From Bacteroidales bacterium (GTDB lineage Bacteria; Bacteroidota; Bacteroidia; Bacteroidales; UBA3663): 64,000 nucleotides of DNA. Position numbers and translations under genes: made by a program. The notes beneath the pieces were generated by a model. It searched no databases, was not told the origin of the DNA, and saw only the letters and a program-made list of their open reading frames with translations. The stretch lies in the NCBI GenBank assembly GCA_017561935.1, contig JAFZBE010000067.1, forward strand, positions 2,752 to 66,751. The letters run 5' to 3'. Each line of letters begins with the position of its first letter. The first letter of the stretch is position 1. This document shows, in pieces, positions 9,753 through 59,806 of this stretch.

Positions 9753-10397
9753 TCAGGAACGGACCTTCGGACAATGCGAACGGATGTAGTCATAGACGAA
9801 GTCGAAATCCTCGTCCACATAGACCTGATTGAAGAAGAGCGGCTCGTTGACCTTGATAAGATGGCGACGGCGATAGGGCTTGACGGCTCGTACCGATGCA
9901 AAGGTCGAATAGGAAGAAGTTTTCGTGGCGGCAAGGAGTCCTGCCCCTATTGTCGAAGGCTTGCCCGTTGCCAGACCCACCATCGCCGTGATGAATCCTA
10001 TCGCCGTTGTTTTCTTCACCTGTTTCTTGAGCTGCCGACATTCGATGCCTTCTTCGTCCATCTCGAACAGCACTACATATTTCCAATTGAAAAGGGCAGC
10101 AAGGATCAGATACGACACAATCGAGAGAACGAAGAAGACGCCTCCTATGATGAGCACTATCTTTCCAGCGAATTGGAGGGTTTCAAGAAAATCGGTGCCA
10201 TCGAAGAGCCCCAAGATAAAGATGAAGACTCCGATACCCATGATGATGTAGGCGAAGACCTTTAGAACCAATATAATCATGCTGGGATTGCGCAACATGT
10301 CGAACTCATAGACCCAACGGTATTTGCCGTCGTCGCATAGTTCAACCTGCTTAAGCTGGGGAGCACTTCTTTTTTCAAGCGTTGTTTCGTTTTCCAT
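9753..10397 (-). CDS. Hypothetical integral membrane protein
   Basis: ORF with several hydrophobic helices (IILVLKVFAYIIMGIGVFIFILGLF, IVLIIGGVFFVLSIVSYLILAAL). Start set at ATG 10397 (MENETTLEK). I recognise no family. Confidence 0.6.
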   Translation of the reverse strand: MENETTLEKRSAPQLKQVELCDDGKYRWVYEFDMLRNPSMIILVLKVFAYIIMGIGVFIFILGLFDGTDFLETLQFAGKIVLIIGGVFFVLSIVSYLILAALFNWKYVVLFEMDEEGIECRQLKKQVKKTTAIGFITAMVGLATGKPSTIGAGLLAATKTSSYSTFASVRAVKPYRRRHLIKVNEPLFFNQVYVDEDFDFVYDYIRSHCPKVRS

Positions 10398-10596: not shown

Positions 10597-13572
10597 ATGA
10601 ACATTTCTAAATTGCACCAGCTGGCGCGCAGTCTGCTCCTCATTTGCTTCATCCTGCTGGGATGGAGCGGATGTGTTGTGTCGTATGCCATTACCATCAC
10701 CGGACGCGTAGCTTCGGCAACCGACGACACACCACTGGCCGGCACCACCATCCGTCTTATGACTCTCCCCGACTCGACCTTCGTTGTCGGCACATTTACT
10801 GACCGCAACGGCAACTTCACTCTTCATTCTTCACGACTGGATGGTTTGCTCAAGGAACGCAAGGCGCATCAAAAGGTGCTCGTGCATTTCACGTACATAG
10901 GTTTCCAAGAAACCCTAAAGGTATTTACGCTACATCACCGGCAGAAGTCGTTCGCGCTCGGCGACGTGTTTATGCAGGAAGAACATCGCCTGTTGGGTGA
11001 GACCGTCGTCTCGGCCACCCCTCCCCCAATGGTGATTCGCGAGGACACTATCGAATACTACGCCAGCAGCTACCAACTTGAGCCCGATGCTACGGCCGAA
11101 GACCTCTTGAAACGACTGGCAGGCATCGAAGTGGATGCCAACGGAAGCATTACAGCCCAGGGCGAGACGGTGACGAAAGTATATGTGGATGGGAAGGAAT
11201 TCTTCAGTTCGAATATCCAGGCCACGACCAAGAACCTCACCGCCGACATGTTCGAGTCGGTGCAGGTGGTGGACATGAAGACCGAGGAGAGCCGTCTCAC
11301 AGGTATCGACAACGGCGAACGCGAGAAGGTGATCAACTTCAAGCTGAAGCCGAGGATGAGGCGCGGATATTTCGGCAACGCTGCCGGTGCATGGGGTGAC
11401 GGCTCGGGCATTGACGACCGTTTCGAAACGAAAGGCATGGCGGGCTACTTCAGAGGCAACAACCAGAATGCACTGGTGGCAAATGCGAACAATACGAACA
11501 ACACGGGCTTCGGCGACTTGGGCGAAAAGGTCATGCGCAACTCGACCATGCGCGGCAACCGAAACAGCGGACGACGCGGTGAAGGTCTGAACACCTCGTG
11601 GAGCATGGGCCTGAACCTTAATTACGACAAGGGTAACCGACTGCGCGACGAGAACACTCCCTTCGCCATCGGCGGCGATGTGCTCTATGGCGGGGAGAAA
11701 CAGAGCGAGAAGACATCGACGCACCGCATCAACTATCTGAAGTCGGGCAACACCGGCACCGACACGGAGCAGACAGGCGACAACAAGGGACAGAACGTCC
11801 AACTCGACTTCAAGTACGAAAAGACCTGGGGCAAGGTAGCCGATGGAGAACATCGCCTGCAAATTAGCCCGGAACTGGCTTTCAACAGATCGGAAACCGA
11901 TGAACATTCGACCAGCAGGAACTACCACCTGGATCCGAATGCGGAGGATGAGATCACGGCACTGCCTTCGACCTACATCAGCCAGACCCAACGCTCGAGC
12001 AACATAAAGCAGCAGGGCTTGAGCTATGAACTCGGTCTCACCTACTCTTACGCCAAGAAGATCTCACGAGGGCGACGACGCAGCAGCATCCGTGTCAGCC
12101 TGAATGGACGACACAATGACGGAGACCACTACACCCAATCGTTCACTAGTTACGACAATCTGCTCGTCAACGACCTGAGTCTCCTGAACGACACCACCAT
12201 CAACCAATGGCAGGAAGAACGTTCGAACTCCCTCACCTATCGCATTCGACTTACCCATGTGGAACCCATCAACGAACATCAGTTCATCGAAGTGGGTGCA
12301 ACGGGCAGTTTCACACGCAACACCCAACGCCAGCTCTACCACTTCTGGGACGAAGGTCTCGGACAATATGCCGACTCGATAAACGGCAGGTCGAACATCG
12401 ACTACAGCACCGATTCGCGTACACAGCAAAACAGCTACACCCTGTCGGCCAGCTATCGCCACGTCACAGAGCGTGTCAATAGCTCGATAGGCATTGACCT
12501 GCTGCCCAACACACAGAACTATACCGACTACTACGACCACTCTCGCGATTACAAACGTTCTTACATGAACTTTGCGCCACGGGTGGAGTACCGCTACAAC
12601 TGGAACCGTAGGAAGAACCTGCGCATCACACTGAACGGCAGGACGACACAACCTTCAATCAACCAACTGCAGGCACGCAAGAACCAGACGTCGGCCACCC
12701 ATGTCACATTGGGCAACCAAGACCTTGGGCCGGCTTTCCAAACCAACTTCCAGGCACGCTTCCGTGCCAACAGCCAAGAGACGGGACGTACGCTGGAGGC
12801 TTCGATCAACGCTACTGCACAGTTCAATACCCTGGCCACCAAACGCTGGTACAGCGCCGACCTCCGGACTGACACGACGATGACAGTTAACATCGACGGA
12901 CTGGGTTCGTGGAACGTGCAAAGCGAATTCAGGGGGTCGTTCCCCTTTGCCGACAACCAATGGTATGTAACCACACAGACGACACTGGGCTACCGCGAGA
13001 ACATCGGTTATGCAAACCTGAAGAGCACCGATACACAGGTGAACCATATACACAACGTTACGGCAGACGAACGAACGGGTATCGCCTACCGTAACGACTG
13101 GCTCAACGTGGAGCTACATGGACATTACAGTCTCTCATATAGCGAGGCGACAATCGTCACCTCGGGAAGTTTGGGTACTACACACCAGTTCGGCGTGCGA
13201 AGCAACTTATCAGCCCGTCTGCCGTGGAACCTGAGTTGTTCGACAAGCATCGACTACACGGGACGACGCGGCTATTCGGCTGGCTTGACGCGCAACCAAA
13301 CCATCTGGAACGCACAACTCTCACGTTCGTTCCTGAAACGCAAGAACCTTTCGGCCTTCGTGAAGGTGTTCGACATCCTGCATCAGAAGACAAGCATCAG
13401 GCGCAGCATCAGTGCCACGTCAATCACCGACCGCGAGAGCACAACACTCAGACAATATTTCCTGCTGGGATGCAGTATGAAGTTTAATCAGGGTGCGAGG
13501 GGTTTGAGGGGTTCGAGGGGTTTGAAGGGTTCGAGAGGTCCGAAGGGTTCAAGGGAACACGAACAACATTGA
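10597..13572 (+). CDS. Outer-membrane beta-barrel protein with carboxypeptidase-regulatory-like N-domain (TonB-dependent-receptor-like, OMP_b-brl_3 type) carrying a repeat-derived C-terminal tail
   Basis: 991 aa. N-terminal ITITGRVASATDDTPLAGTTIRL Cna/CarboxypepD_reg-like domain. Plug-like ETVVSATPPP...VYVDGKEFF. Long Asn/Tyr/Thr-rich barrel. A barrel-type end ...LLGCSMKF is followed by 28 extra residues, NQGARGLRGSRGLKGSRGPKGSREHEQH. Confidence 0.85.
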   Translation: MNISKLHQLARSLLLICFILLGWSGCVVSYAITITGRVASATDDTPLAGTTIRLMTLPDSTFVVGTFTDRNGNFTLHSSRLDGLLKERKAHQKVLVHFTYIGFQETLKVFTLHHRQKSFALGDVFMQEEHRLLGETVVSATPPPMVIREDTIEYYASSYQLEPDATAEDLLKRLAGIEVDANGSITAQGETVTKVYVDGKEFFSSNIQATTKNLTADMFESVQVVDMKTEESRLTGIDNGEREKVINFKLKPRMRRGYFGNAAGAWGDGSGIDDRFETKGMAGYFRGNNQNALVANANNTNNTGFGDLGEKVMRNSTMRGNRNSGRRGEGLNTSWSMGLNLNYDKGNRLRDENTPFAIGGDVLYGGEKQSEKTSTHRINYLKSGNTGTDTEQTGDNKGQNVQLDFKYEKTWGKVADGEHRLQISPELAFNRSETDEHSTSRNYHLDPNAEDEITALPSTYISQTQRSSNIKQQGLSYELGLTYSYAKKISRGRRRSSIRVSLNGRHNDGDHYTQSFTSYDNLLVNDLSLLNDTTINQWQEERSNSLTYRIRLTHVEPINEHQFIEVGATGSFTRNTQRQLYHFWDEGLGQYADSINGRSNIDYSTDSRTQQNSYTLSASYRHVTERVNSSIGIDLLPNTQNYTDYYDHSRDYKRSYMNFAPRVEYRYNWNRRKNLRITLNGRTTQPSINQLQARKNQTSATHVTLGNQDLGPAFQTNFQARFRANSQETGRTLEASINATAQFNTLATKRWYSADLRTDTTMTVNIDGLGSWNVQSEFRGSFPFADNQWYVTTQTTLGYRENIGYANLKSTDTQVNHIHNVTADERTGIAYRNDWLNVELHGHYSLSYSEATIVTSGSLGTTHQFGVRSNLSARLPWNLSCSTSIDYTGRRGYSAGLTRNQTIWNAQLSRSFLKRKNLSAFVKVFDILHQKTSIRRSISATSITDRESTTLRQYFLLGCSMKFNQGARGLRGSRGLKGSRGPKGSREHEQH
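13492..13554 (+). repeat. 9-bp-period mini-array, locus A (7 units, GGTTYGARG family)
   Basis: Units: GGTGCGAGG GGTTTGAGG GGTTCGAGG GGTTTGAAG GGTTCGAGA GGTCCGAAG GGTTCAAGG. Translated as seven Gly-X-Y triplets at the 3' end of the OMP gene. Confidence 0.9.
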
Positions 13573-14569: not shown

Positions 14570-15817
14570 TCACTCATATTCGAAGATTCCATTCTCGGTA
14601 TGGAGCGTGACCTTTGCACCCTCCTTTCGTTCCTCGACATGACCAATGATTTGCGCTTCGATGTTGAAGCTGTGTGCGATGTCAATCACCGTCTGGGCAT
14701 GCTCGGCGGGGAGATAAATCTCGAGACGATGTCCCATATTAAATACCTTATACATCTCGGACCAGTCGGTACCCGACTGCTCGTGAATGGTGCGGAACAA
14801 TGGAGGAATGGGGAAAAGATTGTCCTTGATGACATGCAAATCCTTTATGAAGTGGAGCACCTTGGTCTGTGCGCCGCCGGAACAATGAACCATGCCGTGG
14901 AGGGAGGAGGAGAGGTTTGAGGAGTTTGAAAGGTTCGAGGGGTTTGAGGGGTTTGAGGGGTTTGAAAGGTTCGAGAGGTTTGAGCGGAATACGTCAAGGA
15001 TCTTTTTGACAACAGGAGCATAGGTGCGAGTAGGGCTCAGAACAAGCCTGCCGGCATCAAGGGGGCTGCCTTCGACGGCATCGGTGAGTTTCAGCTGTCC
15101 ACTATAGACGAGTTCCTCGGGCACCGCATGATCGTATGACTCGGGATATTTCTGGGCCAAATACTTGCCAAAGACATCATGACGTGCTGAAGTCAAGCCA
15201 TTAGAACCCATCCCTCCGTTGTATTCTTTCTCGTAGGTGGCCTGTCCGTAGCTGGCAAGACCGACAATGACGTCGCCTGCTGCGATGTTGGCATTGTCGA
15301 TCACATCGCTGCGCTTCATACGACATGTAACCGTAGAATCGACGATGATGGTGCGTGCCAAATCACCGATATCGGCCGTCTCGCCACCTGTACCATACAC
15401 ACCTATGCCCATCTCACGCAGTTCGGCCATCAGTTCGTCGTTGCCATTGATGATGGCACTGATCACCTCACCCGGGATGAGCATCTTGTTGCGACCAATG
15501 GTTGACGAGACGAGGATGTTATCGACAGCACCTACGCAGATAAGGTCGTCGATATTCATGATGAGAGAATCCTGGGCGATGCCTTTCCAAACCGAGAGGT
15601 CGCCGGTTTCCTTCCAATACATATAGGCCAATGATGTCTTGGTACCTGCTCCATCAGCATGCATGATGTTGCAATACTCGGGATCTCCACCCAGAATATC
15701 GGGAATGATTTTGCAGAATGCCTGTGGATAGAGGCCCTTGTCGATGTTCTTGATGGCGTTGTGCACATCTTCCTTGCTGGCACTCACGCCGCGCATCATA
15801 TATCTTTGATCTGCCAT
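14570..15817 (-). CDS. purM: Phosphoribosylformylglycinamidine cyclo-ligase (AIR synthase, Bacteroidota long form) with an in-frame repeat insertion
   Basis: MADQRYMMRGVSASKEDVHNAIKNIDKGLYPQAFCKIIPDILGGDPEYCNIMHADGAGTK ... HGMVHCSGGAQTKVLHF. The conserved flanks are interrupted by a 27-aa tract, SNLSNLSNPSNPSNPSNLSNSSNLSSS. Confidence 0.92.
   Translation of the reverse strand: MADQRYMMRGVSASKEDVHNAIKNIDKGLYPQAFCKIIPDILGGDPEYCNIMHADGAGTKTSLAYMYWKETGDLSVWKGIAQDSLIMNIDDLICVGAVDNILVSSTIGRNKMLIPGEVISAIINGNDELMAELREMGIGVYGTGGETADIGDLARTIIVDSTVTCRMKRSDVIDNANIAAGDVIVGLASYGQATYEKEYNGGMGSNGLTSARHDVFGKYLAQKYPESYDHAVPEELVYSGQLKLTDAVEGSPLDAGRLVLSPTRTYAPVVKKILDVFRSNLSNLSNPSNPSNPSNLSNSSNLSSSLHGMVHCSGGAQTKVLHFIKDLHVIKDNLFPIPPLFRTIHEQSGTDWSEMYKVFNMGHRLEIYLPAEHAQTVIDIAHSFNIEAQIIGHVEERKEGAKVTLHTENGIFEYE
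14905..14985 (+). repeat. 9-bp-period mini-array, locus B (about 9 units) inside purM
   Basis: Units: GGTTTGAGG AGTTTGAAA GGTTCGAGG GGTTTGAGG GGTTTGAGG GGTTTGAAA GGTTCGAGA GGTTTGAGC, preceded by a degenerate GGAGGAGAG. The gene reads the C-rich strand, giving (S-N-L/P) repeats. Confidence 0.9.
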
Positions 15818-22594: not shown

Positions 22595-24346
22595 ATGAAT
22601 AACATAATTACTACCTTGGCAGCCACAGTTCTGGTTATTGCAGGCTGCACACTCACGACATTGGCACAGGCACCTTCGAAGACCTGGAATCCCAATGCAA
22701 AGAACGGAATGTATCGAAATCCGATCATCGATGCCGACTATTCCGACCCCGATGTTTGTCGAGTAGGCAACGACTACTACATGACTTCTTCGTCGTTTGC
22801 ATGTTTCCCTGGACTGCAGATCCTGCACAGCACAGACCTGGTGAACTGGGAGATCATCGGACATGCCTTAACCGACGATTATCCCGTACTGGAGGAGTTT
22901 GAGGGCACCGACCTGGATTGGCACAAGAAAATCCAGCATGGCAACTATGTCTGGGCTCCTGCCATTCGCTATCACGACGGATGGTTCTATATCTATTGCG
23001 GCGACCCCGACCAAGGCCTCTTTATGACAAAGACCCAGGATCCAGCGGGGACATGGGAGCCTATCGTTTGGGTAAAGAAGGGCAAGGGACTTATCGACTG
23101 CTGTCCACTATGGGACGAGGACGGCAAAGCATACCTTTCACATGGTTGTGCAGGTTCACGTGCTGGCGTGAAGTCCATCCTCTTTGTTGCACCGATGTCG
23201 CCCGACGGAACCAAGGTCATCGGTCCTTCACGTGTAGTTTATGACGGACACGAGGACCAACCCACCATCGAGGGAACCAAGTTCTACAAACGTAATGGTT
23301 ACTACTATATCTTCAGCCCAGCAGGTGGCGTTAAATATGGCTGGCAGGTGGAACTCCGTAGCCGTAATCCCTTCGGCCCCTACGAGGAGTATGTCGGACT
23401 GGCACAAGGCAAGTCGAAAGTCAACGGTCCACACCAGGGCGCATGGGTTGACACGCAGAATGGCGAAGACTGGTTTATACATTTCCAGGACAAACATGCC
23501 TATGGTCGTGTCGTACACCTGCAGCCTGCCAAGTGGGTCAACGACTGGCTCGTCATCGGCGAAGACAAGGACGGTGACGGTTGCGGTGATGCCGTAGCAC
23601 AGTGGAAGAAACCCAACCTCCCCTCTTCGGGGGAGTTCCAACCTGCCGAAGATGACGAATTCGATTCCACAGAACTTGGCCTGCAATGGCAGTTTGAAGG
23701 CCCATACAGTCATTACTGGTACTTCTGCGATGCTAACAAGAGCAAGCTGCGCCTATATGGCGTGCAGCGTCCCGATGACTTCAAGAACCTCTCCGACCTG
23801 CAGAACGTCCTGCTACAGAAGTTCCCCACCGAAAACTTTACGGCTACGGCCAAGATGCAGTTCATTCCCAATCCGGAATACAAGGACAAGGGCGAGGAGG
23901 GCGGATTCATCGTCAAAGGACAGGACTATGCCGCCCTCAAGATTGTCAGCATCAAGGAGGGTTGCGAACTGCGCTATGTCACTTGTAAGGATGCCATGCG
24001 GGGCAAAACCGAGGAGATTGAGAAGCGCGTGGATCTGAAGGTCAATAAGATGAAGGCACCCTATACGCAGAAGTATGCTGTCGATGACATTCCACAACCA
24101 CGATATGCCACGCAAGACGTCTATGTGCGTGTAACCGTGAAGAGCGAAGGCACTGGCAATGCTATCAAGTCGAAGGCTCAGTTCTACTATAGCCTCGACG
24201 GCAAGAAATATAAGAAGATCGGCGACGAATTTACAGTCAAGGAAGGCAAATGGATTGGAGCGAAACTCGGCTTCTACAACTCACGTCCAAATGTCAAGAA
24301 TGACGGCGCCTTCCTCGATGTCGATTGGATCCGATTCGAAAAGTAA
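22595..24346 (+). CDS. GH43 glycoside hydrolase (beta-xylosidase/alpha-L-arabinofuranosidase type) with C-terminal ConA-like domain
   Basis: Signal peptide. NPIIDADYSDPDVCRVGNDYYMTSSSFACFPGLQILHSTDLVNWEIIGHAL. VWAPAIRYHDGWFYIY. 583 aa. Confidence 0.9.
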   Translation: MNNIITTLAATVLVIAGCTLTTLAQAPSKTWNPNAKNGMYRNPIIDADYSDPDVCRVGNDYYMTSSSFACFPGLQILHSTDLVNWEIIGHALTDDYPVLEEFEGTDLDWHKKIQHGNYVWAPAIRYHDGWFYIYCGDPDQGLFMTKTQDPAGTWEPIVWVKKGKGLIDCCPLWDEDGKAYLSHGCAGSRAGVKSILFVAPMSPDGTKVIGPSRVVYDGHEDQPTIEGTKFYKRNGYYYIFSPAGGVKYGWQVELRSRNPFGPYEEYVGLAQGKSKVNGPHQGAWVDTQNGEDWFIHFQDKHAYGRVVHLQPAKWVNDWLVIGEDKDGDGCGDAVAQWKKPNLPSSGEFQPAEDDEFDSTELGLQWQFEGPYSHYWYFCDANKSKLRLYGVQRPDDFKNLSDLQNVLLQKFPTENFTATAKMQFIPNPEYKDKGEEGGFIVKGQDYAALKIVSIKEGCELRYVTCKDAMRGKTEEIEKRVDLKVNKMKAPYTQKYAVDDIPQPRYATQDVYVRVTVKSEGTGNAIKSKAQFYYSLDGKKYKKIGDEFTVKEGKWIGAKLGFYNSRPNVKNDGAFLDVDWIRFEK

Positions 24347-24358
24347 GAACAAAAAAGA

Positions 24359-25885
24359 ATGAACGCAACATTGGTATTGGGCGTCATCGTCCTTTACTTC
24401 CTTATGGTTTTCGGTGTAAGTTGGTGGACCACGCGTCGGCGTGACCGCGACACCGAAACCTTCTATCGCGGCGACCGCAAGAGCCCCTGGTGGGTGGTAG
24501 CCATCGCTATGATTGGCACATCCATCTCGGGTGTGACCTACGTGAGTGTGCCCGGCATGGTTGAAGCAAAGCAGATGAGCTACATACAAATGGTCATCGG
24601 CTTTGTTTGTGGTTACTTTGCCGTGGCCTACATCCTGCTCCCCCTTTACTATCGCCTCGGACTCTCGAGCATATACGTGTATCTCGAGCAACGATACGGA
24701 CGGTTCGCCCACAAGACGGGAGCCTCGTTCTTCCTCTTGAGCAAGTATCTGGGTTGCGCCGTCAGGATGTATCTCACTGCTGTGGTTCTGCAACTCGTTC
24801 TCTTCGATCAATTAGGTGTTCCCTTTGGCCTCTCGGTAGCATGCATCATGCTCATCGTCTGGATCTACTCGTTCCGTGGTGGCGTAAAGACACTGGTATG
24901 GACCGACCTTCTGCAGACACTCTGCCTACTATCCGCCATGATAGGATTTGTGATTTGCATCAGTTCAGCGATGGGCCTTGACTTTTCAGGGCTGTATAGC
25001 ACCATCACCGAAAGTCCGATGTCAAGGGTATGGTTCTTCGATGATGCGAATGACACGCGCTACTTCTGGAAACAGTTCCTCGGCGGCATGTTCACCACCA
25101 TCGCCATGACAGGTCTTGACCAGGACATGATGCAGAAGAACCTTTCCTGTAAATCGTTGAAAGAAGCGCAGAAGAACATGGTCTCCTACGGCTTCGGTTT
25201 CCTTCCCGTCAACATCATCTTCCTCTCTCTAGGAATATTATTATATATGTACGCGCGAGAAGTGGGTGTCGATCGAACAGGTGACGAGCTCTTCCCCTAC
25301 CTTGCCACAGGCATCAATCCGACGACGGGCCAACCCTTCCTTCCGCTCATCGTGAGCGTGCTTTTCGTGTTAGGTCTAGTAGCAGCCGCTTTCTCGTCGG
25401 CGGGATCGGCGGTTACCGCTTTGACGACAGCCATCATGGTCGATTTTCTGCGTAAGACGCCCAGCGAGGAAGGTTTGAGGGGTTCGAAGGGTTCGAGAGG
25501 TTCGAAGGGTTTGAGGAGTTCGATAGAGGGCCAACGTTTCTGGGTTCACATCATCAATTCCATCATGATGGGATTCATGATCTACCTGTTCCATCTGCTG
25601 GCTTCCGGCTCAGTCATTAACGCAGTCTATGTGGTAGCATCCTATACATACGGCCCACTCATCGGCCTTTTCTTCTTCGGCATGTTCACGAAGTGCAAGG
25701 TGAAGGATGGATGGTGGATACCGGCCATCTGCATCGCCTCGCCGCTTCTCTGCTTTTTCCTCGATCAGCATTCAGAAGCATGGTTCAATGGATATAAGAT
25801 CGGCTATGAGATGCTGCTAATCAATGGTGCACTGACAGCCCTCGGACTCTTTCTCGCTTCTCTCCACTTCCGCAAGTGTAGTTAA
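24359..25885 (+). CDS. Sodium:solute symporter (SSF) family transporter with an in-frame repeat insertion
   Basis: About 13 hydrophobic helices. SSF-like N-terminus (FYRGDRKSPWWVVAIAMIGTSISGVTYVSVPG). The loop insertion EEGLRGSKGSRGSKGLRSSIEG is encoded by repeat locus C. Confidence 0.88.
   Translation: MNATLVLGVIVLYFLMVFGVSWWTTRRRDRDTETFYRGDRKSPWWVVAIAMIGTSISGVTYVSVPGMVEAKQMSYIQMVIGFVCGYFAVAYILLPLYYRLGLSSIYVYLEQRYGRFAHKTGASFFLLSKYLGCAVRMYLTAVVLQLVLFDQLGVPFGLSVACIMLIVWIYSFRGGVKTLVWTDLLQTLCLLSAMIGFVICISSAMGLDFSGLYSTITESPMSRVWFFDDANDTRYFWKQFLGGMFTTIAMTGLDQDMMQKNLSCKSLKEAQKNMVSYGFGFLPVNIIFLSLGILLYMYAREVGVDRTGDELFPYLATGINPTTGQPFLPLIVSVLFVLGLVAAAFSSAGSAVTALTTAIMVDFLRKTPSEEGLRGSKGSRGSKGLRSSIEGQRFWVHIINSIMMGFMIYLFHLLASGSVINAVYVVASYTYGPLIGLFFFGMFTKCKVKDGWWIPAICIASPLLCFFLDQHSEAWFNGYKIGYEMLLINGALTALGLFLASLHFRKCS
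25472..25525 (+). repeat. 9-bp-period mini-array, locus C (6 units) inside the symporter gene
   Basis: Units: GGTTTGAGG GGTTCGAAG GGTTCGAGA GGTTCGAAG GGTTTGAGG AGTTCGATA. Confidence 0.9.
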
Positions 25886-25988: not shown

Positions 25989-26061
<73 letters not shown>

Positions 26062-27336: not shown

Positions 27337-27882
27337 TTAAGCCTCGGTAGGGGCATCAGTGGCAGCGGCAGCCTCAACAGCAGCGGCAGCCTCAGCAGCA
27401 GCGGCAGCTGCCTTAGCAGCAGCCTCAGCCTTCTTGGCTGCCAATGCTTCAGCCTTGGCATTCTTCACTGCAACCTCAGCGTTGGCAATCTCCTTCTCCT
27501 TCTTGGCAGCTTCGGCTGCGAGACCAGAGATCTTAGTGGTGATCTTAGCCTCCTTGGCCTTCATCCAAGCGTCAAACTTGGCTTTTGCCTGCTCTTCGGT
27601 GAGAGCGCCCTTCTTCACACCACCATTGAGGTGCTTCATCAGAAGGACTCCCTTGTAGGAAAGAATACGACTAGCGGTGAGCGTGGGCTGTGCACCAGTC
27701 TCTACCCAATAAAGGGCGCGTTCGAAATTGAGTTGAATAGTAGCAGGGTTGGTGTTGGGATTGTAAGTACCGATCTTCTCAATATACTTACCATCACGTG
27801 GCGCTCTGCTATCTGCGACTACGATGCTATATACAGCGTAGTCCTTGTGACCATGTCGTGCAAGACGGATCTTTGTAGCCAT
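27337..27882 (-). CDS. rpsP: 30S ribosomal protein S16 with long Ala/Lys/Glu-rich C-terminal extension
   Basis: [67 protein letters not shown], followed by a low-complexity tail of about 95 aa. Confidence 0.95.
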
Positions 27883-52857: not shown

Positions 52858-52911
52858 TCTCTGATTTCTCTGAATTCTCCGATTACTTGGAGTTCTCCGA
52901 TTATTCCGAAT
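52858..52911 (+). repeat. 9-bp-period mini-array, locus F (diverged TCTCYGATT type, 6 units) in the dxs-trkA spacer
   Basis: Units: TCTCTGATT TCTCTGAAT TCTCCGATT ACTTGGAGT TCTCCGATT ATTCCGAAT. The array overlaps the dxs stop codon (52901-52903). Confidence 0.7.
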
Positions 52912-54814
52912 CTTCCTCCAAAACCTTCGCAATGCTCGAGGCATCAATGCCGCAGAGTCGATAGAGTTCGCTCACTGAGCCTTGTGAGATGAACTCGTCG
53001 GGAATGCCCAGGCAGCGGATCTTGCCTTCGTACCCCTGACGGTTGGCTTCCTCCAAAATGGCACTGCCGAAACCGCCAGCCAAAGCACCATCCTCGACGG
53101 TGACAACGCGCGTGTACCTATTAAATATTTGCGCGAGGAGTTCGGTGTCGAGTGGCTTGCAGAACACCATATCATAATGGGCCACGTCACGCTCTACTCT
53201 ATCAATGGCCTTGGCTACCTCGATGCCTATCGGGCCGAAGGAAAGCACAGCCGTGTTTCCGCTGCCTTCACGCAAGCAATAACCACGACCTATCTCCACA
53301 GCCTCAAGGACGTTCTTCCAGTTCGGGTTGCCATCGGCATCATTGCCGCAGATGCTGCCGCGCCCGCGAGGATATCGGATCATGAACGGACCATCAGCCA
53401 CATCCACAGCCGTCACCATCAGTCTGCGCAGCCAATGTTCATCAATGGGCGAGCACACCGTCATGCCAGGTATGGCGCGGAAATAGGGAATATCCAGTAC
53501 ACCGTGGTGCGTCGGTCCGTCGGCACCCACCAGTCCCGCCCTATCCAGGCAGAACACCACATGCAGATGCTGGAGCGACACATCGTTCACCACCTGGTCG
53601 ATGGCACGTTGCATGAAGGTCGAGTAGATGTTGCAGAACGGCAGCATGCCCTCCTTGGCCAGTCCGCCGCTGAAAGTCACGGCGTGTTCCTCGGCAATAC
53701 CCACGTCGAACGTGCGGTCGGGGAATCGATTCATCATATACGTCATCGAACAGCCTGTTGGCATGGCAGGTGTCACACCCACGATTCGCTCGTTCTTCTC
53801 GGCCAGTTCCACCAATGTCATGCCGAAGACGTCCTGGAACTTCGACGGCAGTCCCTCCGTATTCTCCTTGATGCGTTCACCCGTGGCAGGGTCAAACTTG
53901 CCTGGAGCGTGCCAGATGGTGGCTTGCTCTTCGGCCTGCTTGAAACCCTTGCCCTTGATGGTGCACACGTGCAGCATCTTCGGTCCACCCAGATCCTTGA
54001 TCTTGCGCAAAGTCTTTACGAGCGACACCACATTGTGGCCATCCACGGGTCCGAAGTATCGGATGTCGAGGCCCTCGAAGATGTTCTGTCGGCGAGAAAA
54101 GAGCGACTTTACGCTGTTGGCGAAGCGAATCAAGGCGCGACGCAGCCTATCGCTGATCAGGCCATGGCGTTTCAGCGCGTTATATGCCTTGTAGCGCAGC
54201 AGGTTATAGCGTTGGCTGGTAGTAATACGCGTCAAATAGTGGTAGAGGGCTCCCACATTCTGATCGATGGCCATCTGGTTGTCGTTGAGCAGGATGAGCA
54301 GATCGTTCGGATGCGAGGAGGCATTGTTCAAGCCCTCAAAAGCCATGCCTCCGCTGATCGAAGCGTCACCGATTACGGCCACCACCTTGCGCTTGCTGCC
54401 TTCCAGCTTATTGGCCACAGCCATACCCAAGGCTGCCGAGATGCTGTTCGAGGCATGACCCGTTGAGAACGTGTCGTACTCGCTCTCCTTTGGAGTGGGG
54501 AAGCCGCTCAATCCACCCAGCTGGCGCAGAGTATTGAACTTCTCGCGACGACCTGTTAGTATCTTGTGCGCGTAAGCCTGGTGACCCACATCCCACACTA
54601 ACCGGTCGTCGGGTGTGTCAAACACATAATGCAGCGCCACGATGATCTCGATGGCACCCAAGCTCGAAGCGAAGTGTCCCGGATGGACGCTCACCTGTTC
54701 GATGATGAACTGACGTAAAGCCTGACATACATCCGGCAACTGCTCAATCGGCAATTGGCGCAAGTCGGCTGGACTATCAATCCCATCCAGTATGTTCTTA
54801 TATTTCTCTTCCAA
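52901..54814 (-). CDS. dxs: 1-deoxy-D-xylulose-5-phosphate synthase
   Basis: [26 protein letters not shown] and [16 protein letters not shown]. The only start-like codon after the upstream in-frame stop is TTG at 54814. Confidence 0.93.
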
Positions 54815-54828
54815 AGTATATCAATTTT

Positions 54829-54891
54829 CTTAACCCCTCTTAACCTTTCGAACCCTTCGAACCTATCGAACTCTTCGAACCCCTCATCCTT
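54829..54891 (-). repeat. 9-bp-period mini-array, locus D (7 units; G-rich strand is the minus strand)
   Basis: Plus strand reads CTTAACCCC TCTTAACCT TTCGAACCC TTCGAACCT ATCGAACTC TTCGAACCC CTCATCCTT. It covers the last 16 codons and the stop of the wbqC-like gene and ends 15 nt before the dxs start. Confidence 0.9.
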
Positions 54892-57959: not shown

Positions 57960-58020
57960 CACGCTATAATTGACATCTTTTTATCATATATAGTCCTAAG
58001 GTCTTGAGTTTTCTTACCCC

Positions 58021-58060
58021 CTCATAACCTCATAATCCAATAACCTCATAACCTCTTTCG
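58021..58060 (+). repeat. 8-bp-period mini-array, locus E (CTCATAAC type, about 5 units) in the DUF2851 leader
   Basis: Units: CTCATAAC CTCATAAT CCAATAAC CTCATAAC CTCTTTCG. The preceding edge TTTTCTTACCCCCTCATAACC matches the edge of locus D (TTTTCTTAACCCCTCTTAACC) at 19 of 21 positions. Confidence 0.75.
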
Positions 58061-58062
58061 TC

Positions 58063-59376
58063 ATGGAGGAACTCATGTATTTCGTTTGGCAGCAGCGTCT
58101 CTTCCTCACTATAGAGACGCCCGACCATCAGCCCCTCGACATTCTCCACCCCGGACTACGCAACTACGATGCCGGACCCGACTTTTTCAACGCAAAGGTC
58201 AAGGAGGATGGCATCGTGTGGGCTGGGAATGTGGAGATGCACGTCAAGGCATCCGACTGGTATCGCCATCATCATCAAGACGATCCCAACTACGATTCGG
58301 TGATACTGCACGTCGTCATGGACCCCGACACCGAAGTTAGGCTACGAAATGGCACATTGGTCAAGACCGTCGTGATGCATATTCCCGATGATCTGATGGA
58401 ACGCTACCGGCAGCTCTGCAGCTGTACGTCTGCCCCTCTCCTACCAGGTCAAGTCCCCAGCTATTCCTGCATCTCCTGCTCAAATCGGCTCGATCAGATA
58501 CCCTCTGTCGTACTTCACGATTGGATTACAGCTCTCTGCACCCAGCGGATGATCGAGAAACTGCAGCGTGTGCGTGACCTCGTTGAAGGACAACTCAAGG
58601 CATGGCCCGAAGCGTTCTATGTGGTGCTAACACGTAGCCTCGGCACGGGTGTCAACAGCGACCAGATGGAACGATTGGCTCGCAGTCTGCCCTACAGTTG
58701 TCTGTTGCATCATAAGGATAACTTTCTGCAGATTCAAGCCCTTCTGTTTGGACAGGCAGGCCTTCTGCAGATGCAGGATGCGGAATCAAAAGAAGCAAAA
58801 GACCAACAGGAATGGCGACTGATGCAACGCGAATACGCTTTTTTGAGGCAGAAATTCAGCCTTTCTCCCCTCAACGGAACTTATTGGAAGATGGGACGTG
58901 TGCGTCCTCCCGCACAGCCTGAAGCCCGTTTACGTGCCTTGGCCAAACTCATTTGGACACATCAGGACCTCTTCGATGAAGTTCTCGAAGCCAACAGCTT
59001 GGAGCAGATGGAAAAGATTTTCAGTGGAAAGGGTATCGGACGGCAAACGGTGCGCAGCCTCATTATCAATGCGGTTGTTCCCCTCCTACTCGCCTATGCC
59101 CAATGGCAAGGCGATGACGAGCGCTGCGAAAAGGCACTCAATCTGCTCGAAGAACTTCCTCCTGAAAGGAATCGATACATCAACCAATGGATTGAGGCAG
59201 GCATCACCGTGAAGTCCGCCATGGACACACAGGCTTTGCTCCATCTCTTCAAGAACTACTGCCAGCCCCACAAATGCTTGCGCTGCCGTATCGGTTGCTG
59301 GCTGCTAAAAAAGGCCGACATATCCCCTTCGAGCGGCGAAAACCCGCTTCAAGTCTCAGATGAGATTCCCTTTTGA
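58063..59376 (+). CDS. DUF2851 family protein
   Basis: MEELMYFVWQQRLFLTIETPDHQPLDILHPGLRNYDAGPDFFNAKVKEDGIVWAGNVEMHVKASDWYRHHH, as in the conserved DUF2851 N-terminus. A C-terminal CxxC (CLRCRIGC) is present. Confidence 0.85.
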   Translation: MEELMYFVWQQRLFLTIETPDHQPLDILHPGLRNYDAGPDFFNAKVKEDGIVWAGNVEMHVKASDWYRHHHQDDPNYDSVILHVVMDPDTEVRLRNGTLVKTVVMHIPDDLMERYRQLCSCTSAPLLPGQVPSYSCISCSNRLDQIPSVVLHDWITALCTQRMIEKLQRVRDLVEGQLKAWPEAFYVVLTRSLGTGVNSDQMERLARSLPYSCLLHHKDNFLQIQALLFGQAGLLQMQDAESKEAKDQQEWRLMQREYAFLRQKFSLSPLNGTYWKMGRVRPPAQPEARLRALAKLIWTHQDLFDEVLEANSLEQMEKIFSGKGIGRQTVRSLIINAVVPLLLAYAQWQGDDERCEKALNLLEELPPERNRYINQWIEAGITVKSAMDTQALLHLFKNYCQPHKCLRCRIGCWLLKKADISPSSGENPLQVSDEIPF

Positions 59377-59806
59377 GGGAAACGTCCAATTTACGATTGA
59401 GAATTGGACACACGCGATTGGAAACGTCCAATTTACGATTGAGAATTGGACACACACGATCGGAAACGTCCAATTTACGATTGAGAATTGGACACACACG
59501 ATCAGAAACGTCCAATTTACGATCGAGAATTGGACGCACGCGATCGGAAACGTCCAATTTACGATTGAGAATTGGACGCATGCGATCGGAAACGTCCAAT
59601 TTACGATTGGGAATTGGACACACGCGATTGGAAACGTCCAATTTACGATTGAGAATTGGACGCATGCGATTGGAAACGCCCAATTTACGATCAGGAATTG
59701 GACGCGCGCAATCGGAAACGTCCATTTTACGATTGAGAATTGGACGCATGCGATTTACGATAGAACATTCCCCTTTCTAAGTGAGCCCTTCGTCCTCGGA
59801 AATTGA
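59360..59806 (+). CDS. Candidate 148-aa protein made of nine 14-residue repeats (GNVQFTIENWTHAI); coding status uncertain
   Basis: ORF MRFPFE(GNVQFTIENWTHAI)x9...YDRTFPFLSEPFVLGN. In this frame, 4 of the 6 unit polymorphisms shared by two or more units are synonymous third-position changes. However, three frames are open across the array, and most variable sites are CpG-context transitions, which confounds the signal. Confidence 0.25.
   Translation: MRFPFEGNVQFTIENWTHAIGNVQFTIENWTHTIGNVQFTIENWTHTIRNVQFTIENWTHAIGNVQFTIENWTHAIGNVQFTIGNWTHAIGNVQFTIENWTHAIGNAQFTIRNWTRAIGNVHFTIENWTHAIYDRTFPFLSEPFVLGN
59379..59756 (+). repeat. Tandem array, 9 x 42 bp; each unit has a 9-bp inverted repeat and an alternating purine-pyrimidine tract
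   Basis: Unit: GAAACGTCCAATTTACGATTGAGAATTGGACRCRYGCGATYG. Unit starts are at 59379, 59421, 59463, 59505, 59547, 59589, 59631, 59673 and 59715. CGTCCAATT and AATTGGACG are reverse complements separated by 10 nt. There are no unique spacers. Confidence 0.95.

Follow-up and report, generated by a model that had tools for sequence, protein, structure and literature searches.

The DNA analysed here, called the window throughout, is a stretch of 64,000 nucleotides of contig JAFZBE010000067.1 from a Bacteroidales bacterium (assembly GCA_017561935.1). Our subject is array C, a run of six G-rich 9-bp units that lies in frame inside a gene for a sodium:solute symporter family transporter (coordinates in Table 1). 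A GH43 gene (22595..24346) ends 12 bp upstream of the symporter open reading frame (ORF), and the GH43-symporter synteny is retained in three compared loci, L001, L116 and L118. With Pfam PF00474 (TC 2.A.21) the protein scored 55.8 bits (E=4.8e-15), above the gathering score of 22.8; its 139.4 bits with NCBIfam TIGR00813 (E=1.7e-40) stay below the curated cut-off of 184. Among solved relatives, phmmer matches were found to NIS, SMVT, vSGLT and SiaT. An AlphaFold2 model built from 64 homologues, with a predicted local distance difference test score (pLDDT) of 79.5, had 13 membrane helices, and Foldseek matched it to SiaT (5nva) and NIS (7uv0) with TM-scores of 0.75-0.76. By sequence and model, the host protein is a member of the sodium:solute symporter family with a predicted LeuT-type fold.

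Array C and the loop that holds it

The units of array C follow each other in the order GGTTTGAGG GGTTCGAAG GGTTCGAGA GGTTCGAAG GGTTTGAGG AGTTCGATA, and Tandem Repeats Finder reported a period of 9 with 5.8 copies. An earlier sequence-only reading had described six 9-bp units on their G-rich strand inside the symporter, and this was confirmed by the sequence, by the ORF translation and by Tandem Repeats Finder. The encoded peptide GLRGSKGSRGSKGLRSSI is flanked by ...MVDFLRKTPSEE and EGQRFWVH; that reading had located the flanks correctly and had only left out the E preceding GQRF. The peptide carries five lysine or arginine residues (K/R) and no aspartate or glutamate, so it is strongly basic, as had been said. 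For its three arginines only AGG and AGA are used, two codons that account for 11% of the Arg codons in the long ORFs of the window. Because these codons are rare, the peptide is set by the DNA repeat and not by codon preference. The name Gly-X-Y insertion, used in the sequence-only reading, is right in that the stretch is encoded by the repeat, but Gly-X-Y merely describes the frame GGT-TYG-ARR and there is nothing collagen-like in it.

In the model, the insert lies between the helices of residues 330-363, which hold the conserved SSAGSA motif, and of residues 382-414, that is between the ninth and tenth transmembrane helices (TM9 and TM10). Residues 371-380 have the lowest pLDDT in the insert region. 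The topology was taken from the AlphaFold2 helices, as a simple hydropathy scan fused helices and was unusable. Family members with 13 transmembrane helices, such as NIS and PutP, have the N terminus outside and the C terminus inside. With this arrangement assumed, the loops of the symporter hold 27 lysines and arginines inside and 5 outside, and 22 against 5 with the insert removed. The TM9-TM10 loop with array C is thus predicted to face the cytoplasm. The positive-inside rule and the homology to members with 13 helices agree on this, as the sequence-only reading had expected for so basic an insertion, and in the model the insert reinforces the inside-positive charge bias.

The top homologues of the symporter vary in length by steps of 3 aa, and the variation maps to the TM9-TM10 loop. 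In a cluster of orthologues at least 99.6% identical outside the loop, loops of 30, 33, 36, 39 and 45 aa were found, with different unit orders. The orthologue P0001 is 99.8% identical to the symporter of the window outside the loop and has eight units against six, and the DNA of L001 and L119 holds seven and eleven units. Since loop length differs by 3-aa steps in near-identical orthologues, the array behaves as a variable-number repeat. A comparison of copy numbers between strains had been proposed with the sequence-only reading, and it bore the proposal out: close orthologues carry array C with other copy numbers.

The sister L116, about 94% identical outside the loop, has NPAGENLEEQSKTGQKKVIG at the position of array C, and its DNA there is non-periodic. 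The same loop in orthologues without nucleotide periodicity had been named beforehand as what would speak against a repeat-encoded insertion. The comparison does not overturn it, as close orthologues keep the array and the loop DNA of L116 is unrelated. The loop has 25 aa in L116, 30 aa in the window and 5-15 aa in distant homologues, with a family range of about 5 to 45; the distant loops are short and rich in K/R, for example KARRR. In L117 the loop holds two nonamer units in reverse orientation, read as TPQTPQT, and in L118 an 8-bp unit, CCTCAAAA, occupies it with about 17 copies, which are read as NLKTSKPN. The reverse nonamer of L117 and the 8-bp repeat of L118 in the same loop mean that the loop is a permissive site which was occupied several times. 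Of the clean 18-residue insertion described earlier, the array itself stands, but it is better seen as an array filling a loop that was already variable in length.

The nonamer family in the window and beyond

A two-unit pattern, GGTTYGARRGGTTYGARR (GGTTYGARR twice), was searched over the window with at most 2 mismatches and with 100 shuffles as control. It gave 21 matches against 0.12 expected from the shuffles (shuffle maximum 1). The matches fell in four arrays, at 13491-13555, 14910-14985, 25472-25525 and 54842-54881 (minus strand). So the symporter peptide comes from a repeat found elsewhere in the window, as had been claimed, with nonamer arrays at three further loci. Frame and strand relative to the gene at locus B differ from those at locus C. 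Array C is an ordinary instance for this genome.

Table 1. Positions of the symporter gene, its loop and the repeat arrays in the window
Feature	Position	Strand	Remarks
Sodium:solute symporter family transporter gene, 508 aa	24359..25885	+	Pfam PF00474, TIGR00813, AlphaFold2 fold
TM9-TM10 loop, residues 364-393	25448..25537	+	predicted cytoplasmic; length hypervariable across the family
Array C	25472..25525	+	six 9-bp units, GGTTYGARR; G-rich strand is sense; frame GGT-TYG-ARR; encodes GLRGSKGSRGSKGLRSSI
Array A	13491..13555	+	seven units; tail GARGLRGSRGLKGSRGPKGSR... at the C terminus of an outer-membrane beta-barrel protein (991 aa)
Array B	14910..14985	+	eight units, G-rich strand on +; inside minus-strand gene 14570..15817 (AIR-synthase-related)
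Array D	54828..54884	-	9-bp units including AGTTCGATA, then two 10-bp GGGGTTAAGA units; WbqC-dxs spacer
Related 8-bp array	58020..58055	- (G-rich strand)	CCTCATAA x4.5 on +; ends 8 nt before the ATG of ORF 58063..59376

The family was scanned in one genome per species with three consecutive units, and at least 113 stretches were found. All family counts in this and the next two paragraphs are among the matches listed. Sorted by record title, the 113 stretches comprised 89 from Bacteroidota, 14 from Acidobacteriota, 5 from Actinomycetota and 5 from Enterobacterales. Within Bacteroidota, 68 were Bacteroidales-type and 21 belonged to Chitinophagales, Saprospiraceae and Cytophagales. The Bacteroidales-type stretches came mostly from rumen or gut metagenome-assembled genomes (MAGs) and included one isolate (Prevotella sp. 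P3-122), and several genomes had four to seven stretches each. A MAG labelled Citrobacter freundii (QFQQ01; L009, L056, L060, L101) carried nonamer-like arrays on three contigs, which is an unexpected taxon. Carriage by phages was looked for in 2.9 million viral contigs; only four matches were found there, which gives no hint of a phage as vector.

Of the 157 arrays with three or more units, 62 (about 40%) lay inside ORFs that stay open for 60 codons or more to either side. Pfam was checked for six array-bearing ORFs; the hosts include a GH31 glycosidase, a hybrid sensor kinase, a BcrAD/BadFG-type activase, an alpha-L-rhamnosidase that holds several arrays, a DPP-IV peptidase and a GH43 protein. 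At least in the GH31 protein and the sensor kinase (HATPase_c), the array lies within the matched Pfam domain, and in-frame arrays probably lie within domains of the rhamnosidase, DPP-IV and GH43 proteins too. The orthologous alpha-L-rhamnosidases of L081 and L083 have several arrays at corresponding positions with different copy numbers, and in L083 (GLKGSS)n is directly followed by (PQT)n, which are neighbouring arrays of opposite orientation.

The nonamer is free of stop codons in five frames (TTTGA units) or six frames (TTCGA units), while the related 10-bp and 8-bp units have stops in most frames. It means that the 9-nt unit can persist in coding sequence. In the intragenic arrays the C-rich strand was the sense strand in 46 of 62. 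Upstream of genes, the G-rich strand was antisense in 29 arrays against 8 (p=0.0008, neighbour-ORF method); this count replaced an estimate of 44 against 2, which had been inflated by read-through ORFs. In the window, the G-rich strand is sense in arrays A and D at 3' ends and antisense in the array at 58020, which lies upstream of a gene. Array orientation showed no link with local GC skew (82 vs 70, p=0.42). Fixed ends, constant phase and conserved flanks of the arrays were looked for and none were found: array ends fall at every unit phase, and the flanks grade into degenerate units. A discrete mobile element, such as a transposon or an element resembling MITEs (miniature inverted-repeat transposable elements) or Rickettsia palindromic elements (RPEs), was rejected on the grounds of the undefined ends and the variable length.

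Arrays turn over when the window is set beside L001 and L002, its syntenic relatives: they appear and vanish. In L001, positions 2388-2510 hold 9.6 copies of the 10-bp GGGGTTAAGA plus nonamers adjoining the start codon of a peptidyl-prolyl isomerase, and positions 9890-9999 hold two nonamer arrays just 5' of the symporter start; the window has no array at either site. At the position of array B, which is read as SNLSNLSNPSNPSNPSNLSNSSNL and gives SNL/SNP repeats inside the AIR-synthase-related protein, the L001 orthologue carries sequence that goes back to 10/11-bp units. At locus D, the WbqC-family ORF reads into the array with the tail GSKSSIGSKGSKG. The closest homologue of this protein, P0121, ends with ...RMRGAKV and has no array tail, and the WbqC-dxs spacers of L124 and L125 hold unit types other than those of array D. 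The CCTCATAA array at 58020-58055 resembles the CCTCAAAA repeat in the symporter loop of L118.

Array A contains the sole canonical G-quadruplex motif (four G3+ tracts) in the whole window. The beta-barrel protein that it extends runs past ...MKF, and window positions 13491-13572 give it a repeat-encoded tail of about 28 aa. In the L001/L002 orthologue there is an unrelated, non-repeat tail of 21 aa, NQRGGHEGRGKRERSPRRE (L001 about 1330-1390). Proteins of the beta-barrel type usually end in an aromatic residue.

Some further features were recorded in the window. At 59378-59754, 2 nt past the stop codon of ORF 58063..59376, a 42-bp unit is repeated nine times with 90% identity; this repeat has no relation to the nonamer family. 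Across the 3' end of the dxs ORF (52901..54814, minus strand), at 52858-52911, lie about five copies of another 9-bp repeat, TCTCCGATT (reverse complement AATCGGAGA). Ribosomal protein S16 (181 aa; ORF 27337..27882 on the minus strand) has an Ala-rich tail at its C terminus that is encoded by repeats of the GCAGCn type at 27357-27431, and a similar repeat is found at 12896-12963 of L001. A tRNA gene lies on the minus strand at 25989-26061, about 100 nt past the symporter stop codon; a Rfam scan of the window gave nothing besides one tRNA.

Explanations of the insert and of the spread of its unit

We consider it quite probable that the symporter insert belongs to a dispersed family of G-rich nonamers, as a hypervariable array that is in frame and sits in a permissive loop predicted to be cytoplasmic, and that it is a tolerated passenger whose length changes by slippage. 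The array belongs to the nonamer family and lies in frame, its length varies at the level of strains, sister lineages are without it, and the K/R counts speak for the sidedness of the loop. According to this explanation, array C is one member of a G-rich family (GGTTYGARR) dispersed over many loci of a rumen Bacteroidales lineage, and it lies in the codons of the TM9-TM10 loop, which appears poorly constrained and is predicted to be cytoplasmic. Because the unit has 9 bp and its frame has no stop, the reading frame survives when units are gained or lost, and the only effect is to resize a flexible basic stretch. Such a Gly-(Ser/Leu)-(Arg/Lys) stretch, which is presumably translated, would be compatible with the positive-inside rule. 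Growth and shrinkage may occur by replication slippage, possibly with unequal exchange, and the array would have no dedicated role in transport.

A switch by phase variation, as at simple sequence repeat (SSR) contingency loci, was considered for the array and rejected: the unit has 9 bp, all orthologue variants differ by multiples of 3 aa, and the ORFs are intact.

Several points weigh against the passenger explanation. Variability is the sole ground from which neutrality is drawn. The terminal Ser-Ile unit (Gly/Ser/Asp-Ser-Ile) is kept in most array-bearing orthologues, and part of the stretch may therefore be under constraint. Local slippage explains the change in length, but not the arrival of the same unit at hundreds of loci, and it also leaves the genome-specific unit composition unexplained. 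In a quick neighbour-joining tree of P0001-P0032 (loop masked, no support values), array-bearing and array-free symporter alleles are interleaved, which suggests recombination or repeated gain; a single gain followed by vertical descent would not explain it. By this tree without support values, a single gain of the symporter array is not supported.

A role of the peptide itself is the first thing to be weighed against a passenger. The basic Gly-Ser/Leu-Arg/Lys stretch could be a selected functional element, for example a tunable cytoplasmic tether for contacts with lipid or protein, with an adaptive copy number. We regard this as unlikely. The frame in use does yield a benign positive sequence on the correct side of the membrane, and many related lineages keep variable versions of the array; but sister lineages about 94% identical outside the loop are without it, and both its sequence and its length are highly unstable. 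Unrelated proteins use the same nonamer DNA in other frames, the repeat sets the codon usage, and in other lineages the loop is taken up by the unlike peptides TPQTPQT and NLKTSKPN. A shade more unlikely is that array C acts as nucleic acid, with a G-quadruplex or similar structure modulating how the symporter gene is transcribed or translated. Each unit of the G-rich family brings one G-tract, array A has the canonical four-tract motif, the orientation relative to genes is biased, and comparable heptamer repeats form G-quadruplexes in vitro (PMC4692102). The symporter array, however, has only three G3+ tracts with one spacer of 15 nt and no canonical motif, and even the heptamer repeats were not found to regulate anything (PMC4692102). 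Hardly any weight can be given to a collagen-like Gly-X-Y motif, or to an assembly artefact or a sign of a pseudogene. Five successive triplets do start with Gly, but no match to Pfam Collagen (PF01391) was obtained, only SSF; the stretch has no Pro and just five Gly triplets, and its loop is predicted to be cytoplasmic. As for an artefact or pseudogene, the ORF is intact, and over 20 homologues, which come from several sources and were assembled independently, have the same in-frame array.

The spread of the unit poses a separate question, for which the unit composition is informative. In 63 arrays of 14 genomes, selected by the search pattern itself, the share of TTCGA against TTTGA units was genome-specific across non-orthologous arrays (0.83-0.87 vs 0-0.14 among MAGs, permutation p=0.0002), and it had no correlation with GC content (Spearman rho 0.11, p=0.71). 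Orthologous loci differ in unit type, yet identical unit types recur at unrelated loci, a pattern that suggests exchange between arrays or a common source. The unit AGTTCGATA was found in 2 of 826 units in 164 arrays among the matches listed, both in the window, at loci C and D. The sequence-only reading had joined these two loci by this unit, and the unit is indeed common to both. The Ile (ATA) of the last unit of array C, however, aligns with an Ile in the loops of array-free orthologues; this unit may be partly native sequence, so the link between C and D is suggestive and unproven.

These data bear on a further proposal, that arrays are written or homogenised by an active process across loci (ectopic gene conversion, copying from a master array or templated synthesis), the symporter array being one output. 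We hold this as possible but rather doubtful. It would account for the genome-specific TTCGA share, for unit types that differ at orthologous loci and recur at unrelated ones, for the confinement of the rare AGTTCGATA to two arrays of the window, and for the same nonamer in several phyla. On the other side, neither an enzyme nor a template or donor was found, array ends are undefined, the composition signal comes from a small sample chosen by pattern, and the same signal could arise from common ancestry of the arrays or from a mutation spectrum particular to each genome. The four matches in viral contigs likewise give no hint of a phage as its vector. Since this proposal concerns the origin of the arrays, it is compatible with the passenger explanation, which concerns the effect on the protein. 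A wider form of it seems to us somewhat more doubtful again. Rumen Bacteroidales, other Bacteroidota and some Acidobacteriota would then carry an undescribed protein-coding satellite, a stop-free G-rich nonamer actively spread or homogenised across hundreds of loci by ectopic conversion or templated copying, which would continuously write length-variable disordered loops and tails into housekeeping proteins, the symporter loop included.

Relation to known repeats and significance

Among dispersed short repeats, those of the short tandemly repeated repetitive (STRR) type are said to have been first described by Mazel et al. in 1990. Full-text literature searches gave no description of the nonamer family, and the only relevant paper concerned heptamers (PMC4692102). 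Of the repeats on record, those found to be closest are the dispersed G-rich heptamers GGGAATC of Xanthomonas and GGGGA(C/T)T (STRR-type) of Nostoc/Anabaena (Rehm et al. 2015, PMC4692102). Like them, the nonamer forms head-to-tail arrays of short units with one G-tract per unit over the whole genome (in 64 kb of the window, four nonamer arrays and one of an 8-mer), and the arrays vary strongly in length and sequence among close relatives. The G-rich strand is likewise antisense upstream of genes and sense after stop codons, to which arrays A and D and the array at 58020 conform, and no function is known for either family (for the heptamers, PMC4692102). Unlike the heptamers of 7 nt, the nonamer unit has 9 nt and is stop-free in five or six of six frames. 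The heptamers are under-represented in coding sequence (PMC4692102), whereas about 40% of the nonamer arrays among the matches listed lie inside ORFs. The host phyla differ, being Bacteroidota and Acidobacteriota for the nonamer, and most of the arrays seen here, that of the symporter included, are without a canonical four-tract quadruplex motif.

Two other systems share some features with the nonamer arrays. The nonamer family colonises ORFs in a frame-safe way and adds peptide at tolerant sites of many unrelated proteins. The same is true of RPEs, which were reportedly found inserted in frame into protein genes by Ogata et al. in 2000. RPEs, however, are discrete palindromic elements of about 100-150 bp with a fixed length, whereas the nonamer is tandem and variable in copy number, with no defined ends. 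As with intragenic variable-number tandem repeats (VNTRs) and SSR contingency loci, the length of nonamer arrays changes in or beside genes, presumably by slippage, and copy numbers differ between strains. Classical contingency loci switch surface genes on and off by units not divisible by 3 or by promoter spacing. The nonamer, in contrast, never loses frame, and its hosts are housekeeping enzymes and a predicted cytoplasmic loop of a transporter.

In practical terms little follows for the symporter: its insert most likely does no harm and points to a permissive loop with a predicted cytoplasmic position. Dispersed G-rich short repeats of bacteria are known but lack an explanation and were described as avoiding coding sequence, and here a stop-free relative of 9 nt sits in frame in a membrane transporter and, in related genomes, within domains of enzymes. 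The nonamer arrays offer a natural map of insertion-tolerant sites in bacterial proteins. They also produce strain-level polymorphism in protein length, which gene-clustering and MAG pipelines will split or mis-handle. Given its genome-specific composition, the family is a tractable system for the spread of one short unit over a genome.

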